Positions 36,897-38,718 of a stretch of DNA of 64,000 nt are shown piece after piece. Position numbers and translations under genes: made by a program. The stretch lies in the NCBI GenBank assembly GCA_018819405.1, contig JAHJQF010000001.1, forward strand, positions 817,469-881,468. The letters are read 5' to 3'. This stretch comes from Patescibacteria group bacterium (GTDB taxonomy: Bacteria; Patescibacteriota; Patescibacteriia; UBA1558; GWA2-36-10). The notes beneath the pieces were generated by a model. It saw only the letters and a list, made by a program, of their open reading frames with translations, was not told the DNA's origin and did not search any database. Within the stretch, counting starts at the first letter, position 1. Each line of letters starts with the position of its first letter.

Positions 36897-36935
36897 GCCG
36901 GGGTCCCACATATGGGACTCCGGCCTACTTTTTTA
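36897..36935 (+). terminator. Rho-independent terminator of cassette F
   Basis: gccggggtcccacatatgggactccggcctactttttt. Confidence 0.65.
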
Positions 36936-36952
36936 TATAAACACAATAAACA

Positions 36953-36981
36953 TTGACATTTGCAGCCTTTTTGTTTATAAT
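36953..36981 (+). promoter_or_regulatory. Consensus sigma70 promoter (TTGACA-17-TATAAT) for the tRNA-Thr/rpmG island
   Basis: ttgacatttgcagcctttttgtttataat, about 22 nt before the tRNA 5' end. Confidence 0.65.
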
Positions 36982-37003
36982 TTACCCCGTATTTAAAAAA
37001 TCC

Positions 37004-37079
37004 GCCGGGATAGCTCAGTTGGTAGAGCAACGGTTTTGTAAACCGTGGGTCGGGGGTTCAAATCCTCTTCCCGGCTCCA
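37004..37079 (+). tRNA. tRNA-Thr (anticodon TGT)
   Basis: gccgggatagctcagttggtagagcaacggttttgtaaaccgtgggtcgggggttcaaatcctcttcccggctcca. Cloverleaf with acceptor gccggga/tcccggc, anticodon loop tttgtaa and encoded CCA. Confidence 0.85.
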
Positions 37080-37181
37080 TATAATAATTGCCTAATAGTA
37101 TAATTGTTTAATTGAATAATTGATATTAGACAAAAAACTATTATACTATTAACCTATTAATCAATTAACCTAATAATTTTT

Positions 37182-37337
37182 ATGTCACAAGATAATCTAG
37201 CCAAACTGGAATGCACTGATTGCAAAACTATCAATTATCACAGTCATCGTAACAAAAAAACAGTCAAAGAAAGACTGGAAATGAAAAAGTATTGCAAAAA
37301 GTGCAAGAAACATACTATGCACAAAGAGACTAAATAA
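37182..37337 (+). CDS. rpmG: 50S ribosomal protein L33 (zinc-ribbon type)
   Basis: 51 aa: [51 protein letters not shown], the CxxC...CxxC L33 pattern. Below the ORF-track length cutoff. Confidence 0.7.
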
Positions 37338-37350
37338 TTTGGTCTTTTGA

Positions 37351-37473
37351 GGGGGAGTAGTATAGTGGTAGTCCACCCAGCCGCTCGCGAGCAGCTGGGA
37401 CAGGGGTCTCCACCCAGCCCTTCGCGAAGGGCTGGGTCCACCACAGCCACCATTGTTGGCTGGGTCCAAAACC
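37351..37473 (+). pseudogene. 5' portion of a split tRNA-like gene (acceptor + D-arm + CCA-type anticodon-stem region) interrupted by three GC-rich hairpin elements
   Basis: gggggagtagtatagtggtag, then hairpins tccacccagccgctcgcgagcagctggg, acccagcccttcgcgaagggctgggtcc and accacagccaccattgttggctgggtcc between ggtctcc and aaaacc. No T-arm. Its acceptor is complementary to the 3' piece at 37933-37939. Confidence 0.45.
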
Positions 37474-37515
37474 TAAAAAAGCATAATTAAAACAAGAAAA
37501 GCGATTATTTATTAT

Positions 37516-37752
37516 GTGTATATTTTAAAATTAAATAGCGGCAGATTTTATATAGGTTATACGAAAAATATAAAAAGAAGATTATCTGAACACAAAAGAA
37601 AAAAATCTTACATAACTGGCCGAGAAAAATGTTTTGAATTAATCTACTTTGAAGCTTATAATGAGATATACCCAGCTCAAGAAAGAGAGAAAAAACTCAA
37701 ACAATACGGATCAGCTTATCATGGATTATTAAAAAGGTTAAAAATTCGCTAA
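37516..37752 (+). CDS. GIY-YIG nuclease-family small protein (78 aa), second copy in the window
   Basis: MYILKLNSGRFYIGYTKNIKRRLSEHK...E..K. Sits between the two halves of the split tRNA-like gene. Confidence 0.7.
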   Translation: MYILKLNSGRFYIGYTKNIKRRLSEHKRKKSYITGREKCFELIYFEAYNEIYPAQEREKKLKQYGSAYHGLLKRLKIR

Positions 37753-37760
37753 CAGTTGGA

Positions 37761-37836
37761 GGGGGTGTAGTGTCAATGGCTAGCACGTCGGTCTCCAAAA
37801 CCGTAAGTCTGGGTTCGAATCCTAGCACCCCTGCCA
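37761..37836 (+). tRNA. tRNA-Trp (anticodon CCA), intact
   Basis: gggggtgtagtgtcaatggctagcacgtcggtctccaaaaccgtaagtctgggttcgaatcctagcacccctgcca. U8 and T-loop ttcgaat are present, with a G-U closing pair in the acceptor. Confidence 0.85.
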
Positions 37837-37866
37837 TTTGTTAGTGAATTTTTTAATTAAAAATTT

Positions 37867-37943
37867 CTGGTCTCCACCCAGCCGCTCGCGAGAGGCTGGG
37901 TCCAAAACCTCTAGCGTGGGTTCGATTCCTACCTCCCCTGCCA
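37867..37943 (+). pseudogene. 3' portion of the split tRNA-like gene (anticodon-loop region with one inserted hairpin, T-arm, acceptor 3' strand, CCA)
   Basis: ctggtctcc[acccagccgctcgcgagaggctgggtcc]aaaacctctagcgtgggttcgattcctacctcccctgcca. Removing the bracketed 28 nt gives ggtctccaaaacc, identical to the tRNA-Trp anticodon loop. Confidence 0.45.
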
Positions 37944-38022
37944 GCTTAAGATCATCTTTTGAGATGGTTTTTTTGTTTGCAAAAGAAAAGGAGACTCACG
38001 AATTTTGAATTCATAAATCTCC

Positions 38023-38502
38023 TTAATCATCATCATTGTAAATGCGACATTGATATTCGCATTCATCACACCAGCCATCACTATCTAACTTTGTTGCTGG
38101 ATTGCCACAGTTTAGACATATACCCTTCTCTCTTGCTTCATTTACCTTCCTTTCTTTTCTTAAGGCTATTTCTTTTGCTTCTCTCTGAGCTTTTAATGAC
38201 TCTTTATTTATCCTTTCCATTTCTAATCTATAACGCTCTTCTCTGTTTACTTCCCGTTCTTTTGTTATTATGTCATATTTCTTTACTTCTTCACTAAGCT
38301 GTTTGTCAAAACATTTAGGGCATAGTTTTTTCCCGTGAAAATTGGTGAAGATTGTTTCTTTTTTCTTTTTGCATTTATCACAAATGCCTTTACTACAAAG
38401 TGTGATGTTTTTGCCCTGTCTAGATGAGGCGCCTCTCTTACTATCCAAAACAATACCCACCCAAACCACGAACATAAGCAGGGCTAAGACGATGATTCCC
38501 AT
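38023..38502 (-). CDS. Hypothetical membrane-anchored protein with two zinc-ribbon-like Cys clusters and a coiled coil
   Basis: 159 aa. N-terminal TM, CxxC...CxxC pairs (CDKCKKK...CPKCF and CLNCGN...CDEC). Confidence 0.4.
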   Translation of the reverse strand: MGIIVLALLMFVVWVGIVLDSKRGASSRQGKNITLCSKGICDKCKKKKETIFTNFHGKKLCPKCFDKQLSEEVKKYDIITKEREVNREERYRLEMERINKESLKAQREAKEIALRKERKVNEAREKGICLNCGNPATKLDSDGWCDECEYQCRIYNDDD

Positions 38503-38718
38503 TCTTGTACCTCCAGAAAGGGTTGATGGTCAACGTACGAACAAATCATATTATATTAATATACTTTACTGTTTTTGTCAATCCTTATTATCAAAAAAAG
38601 TTCAAACACCAACCCACAGTCCCTGCCAAAAAACACCGATTACAAAAATTGGTGTTTTTTGATTAAAAAAAGACCGTCTCTTGAAGGTGGACGGCCTTAC
38701 CCGGCTCGTGGAGCCAAA

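Follow-up and report, generated by a model that had tools for sequence, protein, structure and literature searches.

A tRNA-Trp gene of a Patescibacteria genome divided by a GIY-YIG nuclease gene and a second, intact tRNA-Trp: a probable homing-type cassette with its own replacement tRNA

The window analysed here is a stretch of 64,000 nucleotides from a Patescibacteria group bacterium (assembly GCA_018819405.1, contig JAHJQF010000001.1, positions 817,469 to 881,468 of the forward strand), and the element in question occupies positions 37351 to 37943, where the two parts of an interrupted tRNA-Trp gene, here called A, enclose a small GIY-YIG nuclease gene and a second, intact tRNA-Trp gene, called B. 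A preliminary description of the same DNA had proposed this arrangement of tRNA halves around a GIY-YIG open reading frame (ORF) and an intact tRNA-Trp, and it was borne out by ARAGORN on the joined halves, by Rfam, by a match of the ORF to PF01541 and by comparison with an uninterrupted gene in a relative. All parts of the element lie on the plus strand. The 5' remnant begins with positions 1-22 of A (37351-37372; GGGGGAGTAGTATAGTGGTAGT), comprising the 5' strand of the acceptor stem and the D arm up to GGTAGT. It is then interrupted in the D stem by a 27-nt palindromic unit (37373-37399; CCA followed by CCCAGCCGCTCGCGAGCAGCTGGG; fold of -14.3 kcal/mol), which separates position 22 of the 74-nt gene from position 23 (23 and 24 in standard tRNA numbering). 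The remnant continues with positions 23-32 (37400-37409; ACAGGGGTCT) and is broken again after U33, by a 28-nt palindromic unit (37410-37437; CCACCCAGCCCTTCGCGAAGGGCTGGGT; fold z=-4.8) whose exact sequence is also present in at least 10 other loci and by a second, divergent 28-nt hairpin unit in tandem with the first (37438-37465; CCACCACAGCCACCATTGTTGGCTGGGT). It ends with a left copy of the anticodon and the 3' strand of the anticodon stem (37466-37474; CCAAAACCT). An AT-rich spacer with a conserved GAAAAGCGATT motif (37475-37515) leads to the ORF of the minimal GIY-YIG nuclease (37516-37752; NCBI MBU1203254.1), which has 78 aa when counted from a GTG codon, its homologues having about 81 aa, and tRNA-Trp(CCA) B follows at 37761-37836. 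Beyond a further spacer (37837-37868), the 3' remnant starts with a right copy of the 5' strand of the anticodon stem (37869-37873; GGTCT), is broken after U33 by another 28-nt palindromic unit (37874-37901; CCACCCAGCCGCTCGCGAGAGGCTGGGT) and runs on with positions 33-74 of A, from the anticodon to CCA (37902-37943; CCAAAACCTCTAGCGTGGGTTCGATTCCTACCTCCCCTGCCA). The halves thus contain four GC-rich hairpin units, one in the D stem, two in tandem after U33 and one after the right U33.

In the flagged region and its flanks, ARAGORN and Rfam detected only two tRNAs, a tRNA-Thr upstream and B. The latter forms the contiguous cloverleaf of a functional tRNA, with an Rfam RF00005 score of 54.7 bits against a gathering score of 29, and is presumed to be the working gene that supplies the single essential Trp acceptor. 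As it stands, A is not recognised as a tRNA by either program, whether as single halves or as the full 593 nt; removal of the inserts in silico yielded a joined gene of 74 nt which ARAGORN identifies as tRNA-Trp(CCA). The anticodon stem-loop core GGTCTCCA..AAACC is present three times, as the preliminary description had stated, at 37405-37474, 37790-37802 and 37869-37910. The first and third of these positions are direct repeats of the form GGTCTCCA-unit-AAACCT, so that a copy of the anticodon stem-loop (tRNA positions ~29-42) stands at either end of the cassette, each copy broken after U33 by one or more 28-nt units.

A close relative provides the corresponding empty site. The 794-bp ENA contig ERZ27293400 (L002; the loci compared here carry L numbers), which was found via the L33 protein of the window, contains rpmG, the same 13-nt spacer as the window and then an uninterrupted 74-nt tRNA-Trp that agrees with the joined halves of the window in 74 of 74 positions, the portion from the anticodon to CCA included (0 mismatches). 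A chance similarity of the two halves, against which the preliminary description had cautioned, is thereby ruled out. Neither a GIY-YIG ORF nor a second tRNA nor hairpins are present on the L002 contig. One and the same site is therefore polymorphic for presence and absence, filled in the window and empty in L002, and the arrangement of the window is independently found in a second assembly, Logan SRR6514730 (L001/L003). Accordingly, the gene that this close relative possesses in intact form is represented in the window by an insertion allele. In rpmG, the two sequences differ by five synonymous substitutions in 156 nt, and since there is none in the halves of A, the split would be recent relative to the divergence of the two strains, unless the halves have been homogenised by recombination.

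The arrangement is a recurrent Patescibacteria cassette, found on about 30 independent contigs. Its order is a 5' remnant with a unit after U33, the GIY-YIG ORF, an intact tRNA-Trp, and GGTCTCCA-unit-AAACC with the 3' remnant; individual cassettes keep one or both remnants, both being present in the window, L019/L021, L032 and L034. A scan for the anticodon-loop hairpin with the pattern TCCACCCAGCC-N8-12-GGCTGGGTCC gave 12 loci in species-representative genomes, six of them in a tRNA-Trp context (metagenome-assembled genomes (MAGs) of Patescibacteria, Parcubacteria and Curtissbacteria and two low-GC MAGs labelled Gammaproteobacteria), and 18 contigs in metagenomes, of which about 15 are true. 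In all six genomes and these ~15 contigs the unit lies within the anticodon loop of a tRNA-Trp, and wherever the contig reaches far enough an intact tRNA-Trp and a GIY-YIG ORF are located beside it; exceptions to a full ORF are a C-terminal stub in L014/L016 and, in L018/L027, an ORF resembling a 23S rRNA intervening sequence protein. Sampling through the protein avoids the bias of the hairpin pattern: for the homologues P0002, P0016, P0026, P0013, P0028 and P0022 (45-75% identity), the ORF is directly upstream of an intact tRNA-Trp, accompanied by remnants and palindromes, in 6/6 places with DNA. The cassette follows rpmG in the window and in L004, L005, L020, L026, L030, L031, L034, L037 and L041, and has its own promoter in L013.

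Several of these loci show peculiarities of their own. L004 and L015 (CAZPMS010000006.1 and CAYHHA010000022.1) are labelled 'uncultured Gammaproteobacteria' and have 35-41% GC; they carry the cassette, their gene order (tRNA-Thr/Tyr/Thr-rpmG-tRNA-Trp) is of the Patescibacteria type, and the taxonomic label is probably wrong. Decay of the endonuclease gene is exemplified by L014 (548-774) and L016, in which the 5' remnant and the intact tRNA-Trp enclose no more than a C-terminal stub of the nuclease ORF (..REQKLKQFGSSYHGLVKRLNLK). The ORF located 5' of the intact tRNA-Trp in L018 (2800-3145) is not a GIY-YIG gene and, judged by eye, resembles the four-helix-bundle 23S rRNA intervening sequence protein; L018 nonetheless has a downstream tRNA-Trp remnant with palindromic units. 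The same contig contains a second, distant GIY-YIG ORF (2012-2420) between tRNA-Tyr and tRNA-Thr(UGU), and 3' of this ORF two truncated 5' fragments of tRNA-Thr, one broken off after GGTAGA and the other after GGTA within the D loop, precede an intact tRNA-Thr; analogous cassettes for other tRNAs may exist. At their ends, the contigs L018 (3277-3397) and L027 (1-101), from different samples, fold back on themselves: the T-loop unit is the centre of a giant palindrome that repeats the whole 3' remnant in inverted orientation. This inverted duplication is either real or an artefact that the palindrome caused during assembly. Upstream of the cassette, L015 (3900-4560) and L032 (1-520) repeat the end of the nuclease ORF together with an identical tRNA 5' half, which looks like tandem copies of a unit of palindrome, ORF and 5' half; L015 has an N run there. 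Finally, L020 (500-580) and the remnant of L005 show an unusual tRNA-Trp T loop (GGGCGCGACACC / GAGTGCGACAC) instead of GGTTCGAnTCC; the copy in L020 was not called by ARAGORN, and the canonical intact gene may be missing within that contig.

The ORF of the window matches Pfam PF01541 with E=5.7e-12. Among proteins of solved structure, BH0048 and EF2693 of UPF0213 are its nearest relatives and the N-terminal domain of UvrC comes next, and an AlphaFold model (pLDDT 88.8) has the same UPF0213/UvrC-N fold. Among 31 homologues, residues G14, R22, H26 and E58 are invariant, Y2, Y12, Y15 and E25 are conserved to at least 90%, and the C-terminal motif KLKQYGSSYxGLLKRL is strongly conserved; the protein is therefore under purifying selection. 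The start of the family, gcgatt ATG TAT TAY GTN, reads ATT TAT TAT GTG in the window, and translation of this copy would begin either at the ATT (37507-37509) or at the GTG at 37516, with loss of the first three residues. Small proteins of this type are numerous, as a profile search returned about 3,000 cluster representatives at E<=1e-10, counted irrespective of their neighbourhood.

The palindromic units follow a common design. When remnants were aligned to intact alleles, the insert measured 28 nt in 9 of 11 cases and 27 and 29 nt in the other two, and all units are in one register, consisting of a 4-nt leader and a 24-nt GC-rich palindrome with arms CCCAGCC, TCCAGCC or TCCCGCC and the centre YTC-NN-GAR, mostly TTCGCGAA or CTCGCGAG. 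Units are inserted in the anticodon loop behind U33, in the D arm and, in L004, L026, L030 and L034, in the T loop behind U55. In the anticodon loop (TCCA) and for the first D-loop unit of L007 (TGAA), the leader equals the adjacent target, which looks like a 4-bp target duplication; a clean target-site duplication for every unit was rejected, as the T-loop units do not fit. L007 also carries a reverse-oriented unit of the T-loop type, and units thus insert in either orientation. The stems are Watson-Crick paired at 219 of 232 pairs, and the G.T and A.C exceptions are balanced. The reversed orientation and the balanced exceptions point to palindromes at the level of DNA rather than to structures of the sense-strand RNA. 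Compensatory changes between copies occur in L032 (left TTTCGCGAAA, right TCTCGCGAGA) and in the window (37410 versus 37874). Units within one locus are alike, both the D and the anticodon unit of L039, for example, having TCCCGCC arms, and this likeness suggests local copying. In the 64-kb window and ~197 kb of loci, the units are confined to the cassettes with one exception (L035:2336). A dispersed repeat resembling repetitive extragenic palindromes (REPs) or miniature inverted-repeat transposable elements was rejected, as there is no further copy in the window and just this one outside cassettes in the collected loci. The exceptional unit (L035 2336-2361; GTCCAGCCTCTCGCGAGAGGCTGGAC) lies beyond the next ORF and equals the copy located just after the tRNA-Trp at 1848. 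The centre of the unit is far better conserved than the adjoining ORF (~50% amino-acid identity), implying a sequence-specific constraint on the centre, and the nuclease is the only conserved protein nearby.

In the relatives, the intact tRNA-Trp always adjoins the nuclease gene. The 3' half is missing in L013, L007, L017 and L028, the downstream remnant of L026 lacks the 5' acceptor strand, and the remnants of L019 and L032 are visibly decayed; the outer gene A of the window is judged to be a dead gene, as are the remnants generally. L034, which also has its locus after rpmG and a nuclease with 76% identity over the aligned region, offers a direct comparison. Apart from the anticodon stem and the variable loop, its remnant has the sequence of the window's intact B, with identity over 26 nt on the 5' side and 30 nt on the 3' side, and its intact tRNA carries the acceptor stem of A; a like reciprocal swap is seen in L026/L030. 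The roles of intact gene and remnant evidently swap between genomes, and alleles turn over. An intact tRNA composed of the 5' half of the element and the 3' half of the resident gene was rejected as a general explanation, as it does not fit the window, L013 and L019, where both halves of the intact gene are co-adapted and unlike the remnant; a chimeric origin is conceivable where the 5' parts of remnant and intact gene are identical. Further downstream in the window, an older, degenerate 3' fragment of tRNA-Trp (38600-38628, plus strand; GTTCAAACACCAACCCACAGTCCCTGCCA) adjoins a terminator hairpin (38627-38661, plus strand) homologous to that directly 3' of A in L002, and this third fragment points to an earlier round of replacement at the locus. 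Moreover, the GCTTAA that follows the 3' remnant of the window is, by alignment, common to L034 and absent from L002. On the basis of the decayed remnants, the swapped alleles, the older 3' fragment and the GCTTAA, the locus appears to have been overwritten more than once.

Pairwise identities of the GIY-YIG protein and of L33 are uncorrelated (Spearman rho -0.19, p=0.2, 45 non-independent pairs), the values for L33 and nuclease being 84% and 56% for L004/L005, 61% and 73% for L004/L026, and 73% and 88% for L026/L030. This mismatch is supportive of mobility, short of being decisive given the shortness of L33. The direct repeats of a tRNA segment at both junctions are a trait of integrative elements that target tRNA genes, but no integrase is encoded in the cassette of ~0.5 kb, which holds only the nuclease ORF and the tRNA.

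We propose, with a probability of about 0.72, that an intron-less selfish cassette of the homing type (~0.5 kb), which carries its own replacement tRNA, recently split A in the anticodon stem-loop. The preliminary description had offered two alternatives, an intron with spliced halves or a mobile module that brings a replacement tRNA, and it is the second that gains support, from the empty site in the close relative, from the recurrence across genomes and contexts and from the uncoupled divergence of nuclease and L33. The nuclease would cut the DNA of a naive tRNA-Trp gene, by analogy with SegB of phage T4, which recognises a tRNA motif, and the break would be repaired by copying the donor locus. 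The nuclease gene would thus be inherited between homology arms derived from the target, and a functional tRNA would travel along with it. In L007, L015, L032 and L039-L041, the ORF is flanked by a copy of the tRNA 5' part on the left and by the full tRNA on the right, so that repair from such a donor could copy the ORF in while preserving an intact tRNA. More speculatively, the palindromic units might be small mobile units at the DNA level that are tied to the nuclease. By interrupting every leftover segment of the tRNA they might keep the old gene from being restored; if the two copies of the anticodon stem-loop recombined, the product would be a tRNA that still bears a unit and is dead. Similarly, the units would chop the direct repeats of the 5' part into short tracts, which might hinder deletion of the cassette and lock the host in.

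A number of points weigh against this proposal. With 78-81 aa, the protein consists of one compact catalytic domain and a short basic C-terminal helix, and it has no separate DNA-binding domain as do known GIY-YIG homing enzymes; its cleavage activity and its target are suggested by analogy, and the copy in the window, having lost the canonical ATG, may be weakened. Intact and remnant alleles have the same anticodon stem-loop and T-loop motifs, which leaves the escape of the cassette's own tRNA from cleavage unaccounted for. A duplication of 14 bp of the stem-loop (42 bp with the unit) is not predicted by simple double-strand-break repair, and a purely disruptive role of the units would leave the strong conservation of their centres unexplained. 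The comparison with L33 is noisy, as the protein has ~50 aa and the pairs are not independent; window and L034 diverge alike in L33 (78%) and nuclease (76%), which allows vertical descent for this pair. Carriage by a phage was rejected: neither the palindrome pattern nor the protein profile had a match among the viral contigs of IMG/VR, and no vector is obvious.

It is highly improbable that A is a functional split or intron-containing gene, the halves of which would be transcribed and joined in cis or in trans with the hairpins as intron or guide elements. The joined halves do form a perfect tRNA-Trp, and the hairpins at their ends are mutually complementary (I1, 37 nt, 81%), superficially like the split tRNAs of Nanoarchaeum. 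The first and the last hairpin can even pair over a long range in a 621-nt fold; this was rejected as evidence for trans-splicing, as similar palindromes are simply complementary to each other. Group I introns in tRNA anticodon loops do occur in Patescibacteria (PMC13011429). However, when 36900-38100 was compared by cmscan with all of Rfam, thereby covering the search for a group I intron core that the preliminary description had suggested, no group I or II intron or other non-tRNA family was found at E<=10. Neither is there a bulge-helix-bulge motif: every unit is a continuous helix of 8-13 bp, uninterrupted by 3-nt bulges, with its boundaries at the base of the helix. With a unit in the D stem, four separate excisions would be required, and the duplicated anticodon stem-loop argues against an intron since splicing or introns do not yield such a duplication. 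An intact tRNA-Trp is always present, some relatives retain one half or halves without an acceptor strand, and an RNA-strand signal in the hairpins was rejected, as G.T and A.C mismatches (5 versus 4) show no bias and one unit is reversed. A group I intron in the anticodon loop was thus dismissed on account of the undetected core, the duplicated exon sequence, the insert in the D stem and the intact second tRNA-Trp inside, and an archaeal-type intron or split tRNA on account of the missing bulge-helix-bulge motif and of halves that are incomplete or decayed in relatives. The spliced or trans-spliced halves of the preliminary description, accordingly, find no support.

Two other explanations dispense with homing. 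A non-mobile locus is unlikely, in which the GIY-YIG gene would be an old neighbour of tRNA-Trp with a role in housekeeping or repair and the remnants would result from palindrome-promoted duplication, slippage and decay. It would account for the constant order of nuclease and tRNA-Trp, for a 5' remnant that in L007, L015, L032 and L039-L041 equals the 5' part of the intact tRNA as after a local duplication, for the similar divergence of L33 and GIY-YIG protein between window and L034, and for the lack of a viral carrier in IMG/VR. It is at odds with the empty site of L002, clean of ORF, second tRNA and palindromes, with the different alleles of remnant and intact tRNA in the window, L019 and L034, the roles of which swap, with the placement of the cassette wherever tRNA-Trp is located, and with the lack of correlation between nuclease and L33 identities. 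Quite unlikely is a cassette driven by a host tyrosine recombinase (Xer/dif or integron-like), with the 28-bp palindromes (~10-11-bp arms, 6-bp TCGCGA centre) as its sites, nuclease gene and tRNA as the excised and integrated unit, and the nuclease itself as passenger or accessory. The size of 28 bp and the layout of arm, centre and arm resemble dif-type sites, the centre is the best conserved part of the unit, the cassettes of the window, L019/L021, L032 and L034 lie between two units in direct order, and the downstream remnants of L026 and L030 look like a collapsed product of 5' half, unit and 3' half. Against this, solo units in D arms and T loops cannot arise by site-specific recombination, neither the cassette nor its immediate surroundings encode a recombinase, and the two central bases vary (GC, AC, GT, TT, AT, GA), which strand exchange would tolerate poorly. 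A more far-reaching version of the homing hypothesis appears doubtful, though less so than these two: the units would represent ultra-small mobile DNA of a new class, moved or made by an 81-aa nuclease that targets tRNA-Trp loops, and together with the tRNA they would act as an addiction device. If so, the only tRNA-Trp gene of the host would be irreversibly destroyed and deletion-prone repeats chopped, making loss of the cassette impossible.

Of the known systems, the free-standing GIY-YIG homing endonucleases of T-even phages come closest, in particular SegB, which is encoded in the tRNA gene cluster of phage T4, recognises a conserved T-loop motif of tRNA genes and promotes the inheritance of both its own gene and the tRNA genes beside it (PMC2330249). 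Both systems comprise an intron-less GIY-YIG gene among tRNA genes with presence/absence polymorphism between relatives. SegB has a DNA-binding part and a phage as host, whereas the cassette protein of ~81 aa is a catalytic domain only and resides on a cellular chromosome; the cassette, which is known from sequence alone, further differs by the split resident tRNA, the duplicated anticodon stem-loop and the 28-nt palindromes. In the mitochondrial atp6 insertion of Allomyces and in organellar homing endonuclease genes with duplicated 3' ends, a mobile ORF brings along a replacement gene segment. There, as in the cassette, the element's own copy keeps the host gene working and the displaced piece is left as a pseudogene remnant; the cassette, in contrast, provides a whole tRNA gene, is located on a bacterial chromosome, and leaves both halves in place, dotted with palindromic units. 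Disrupted tRNAs of archaea include the split tRNAs of Nanoarchaeum and the multi-intron tRNAs of Thermoproteales with transposed introns. They share with the cassette short, related hairpin inserts at D, anticodon and T positions and GC-rich, complementary ends of the halves, and differ in their bulge-helix-bulge motif, their host domain and the decaying pseudogenes that lie beside an intact gene in the bacterial case. Small GC-rich palindromic mobile elements are known as REPs and bacterial interspersed mosaic elements (with RAYT), as GC clusters of yeast mitochondria and as PstI palindromes of Neurospora. Like these, the 28-nt units are GC-rich insertions of unit length in AT-rich genomes, occur in either orientation and show compensatory changes; unlike them, they measure only 28 nt, are not dispersed but confined to tRNA-Trp remnants beside one nuclease family, and have no evident HUH transposase.

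Within the phylum, the group I introns of tRNA anticodon loops are a further comparison; tRNA-Trp, GIY-YIG and hairpin units are absent from the main text of their description (PMC13011429). The site of insertion and the phylum are the same, and some such introns carry homing endonuclease genes, whereas in the cassette no ribozyme core was found, exon sequence is duplicated and a complete second tRNA lies inside. GIY-YIG ORFs have also been reported in inserts of rRNA genes of the Candidate Phyla Radiation that are neither group I nor group II introns; they are sparse and were judged to be outside a homing context (PMC11270868). These have in common with the cassette the phylum and a GIY-YIG ORF in a non-intron insert of a structural RNA gene; they differ by their location in rRNA, with no replacement gene or palindromic units described. 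No description of a cassette of the present design was found in the searchable full-text literature. If our proposal is true, this would be the first bacterial chromosomal selfish element described in that literature which seizes a tRNA gene that is essential and single-copy, splitting the resident gene and providing a copy of its own. It would account for scrambled-looking tRNA-Trp loci of Patescibacteria and for stray half-tRNAs in annotation pipelines, assign a concrete role to a branch of the small GIY-YIG (UPF0213-like) proteins, which are very abundant and uncharacterised, and reveal a discrete 28-nt palindromic insertion unit that could prove new in kind. As the roles of intact gene and remnant swap between genomes, the locus might serve as a natural system for allele turnover of an essential gene.

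Upstream of the element, on the plus strand, are a candidate promoter (TTGACA-17-TATAAT, 36953-36981; 12/12 match to the sigma-70 consensus), an intact tRNA-Thr(UGU) (37004-37079; ARAGORN, Rfam 70.6 bits, 76/76 identical to L002) and rpmG for the 51-aa ribosomal protein L33 (37182-37337; PF00471, 151/156 nt identical to L002 with identical protein). The promoter is likely to drive tRNA-Thr, rpmG and the cassette, and the whole unit would be transcribed within the tRNA-Thr-rpmG operon. Past the 3' remnant there is a possible terminator hairpin with a T run (37951-37974, plus strand), which was read by eye and was not flagged by the terminator scan. A CxxC-rich, zinc-ribbon-like ORF of 159 aa on the minus strand (38023-38502; weak DUF7685 match), which sits between this newer remnant and the older tRNA-Trp fragment and is not present in L002, probably arrived with or before the cassette; genes for an FKBP isomerase and an M23 peptidase are located further downstream. 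The preliminary description had correctly remarked that secE and nusG are not found downstream, an observation of little weight since other rpmG-tRNA-Trp loci of Patescibacteria also lack them there. B itself is flanked by a 15-nt leader/trailer inverted repeat that prolongs its acceptor stem (37740-37767/37826-37853, plus strand; z=-6.1). This repeat was rejected as a feature of the cassette, as tRNA-Thr genes of other Patescibacteria loci have similar stems on either side. Stems of 8-19 bp prolong the acceptor of tRNA-Thr(GGU) in L004, of tRNA-Thr in L005 and L018 and of tRNA-Trp in L019 and L020; their sequences vary by locus, and they look like a general processing-stem trait of these genomes.

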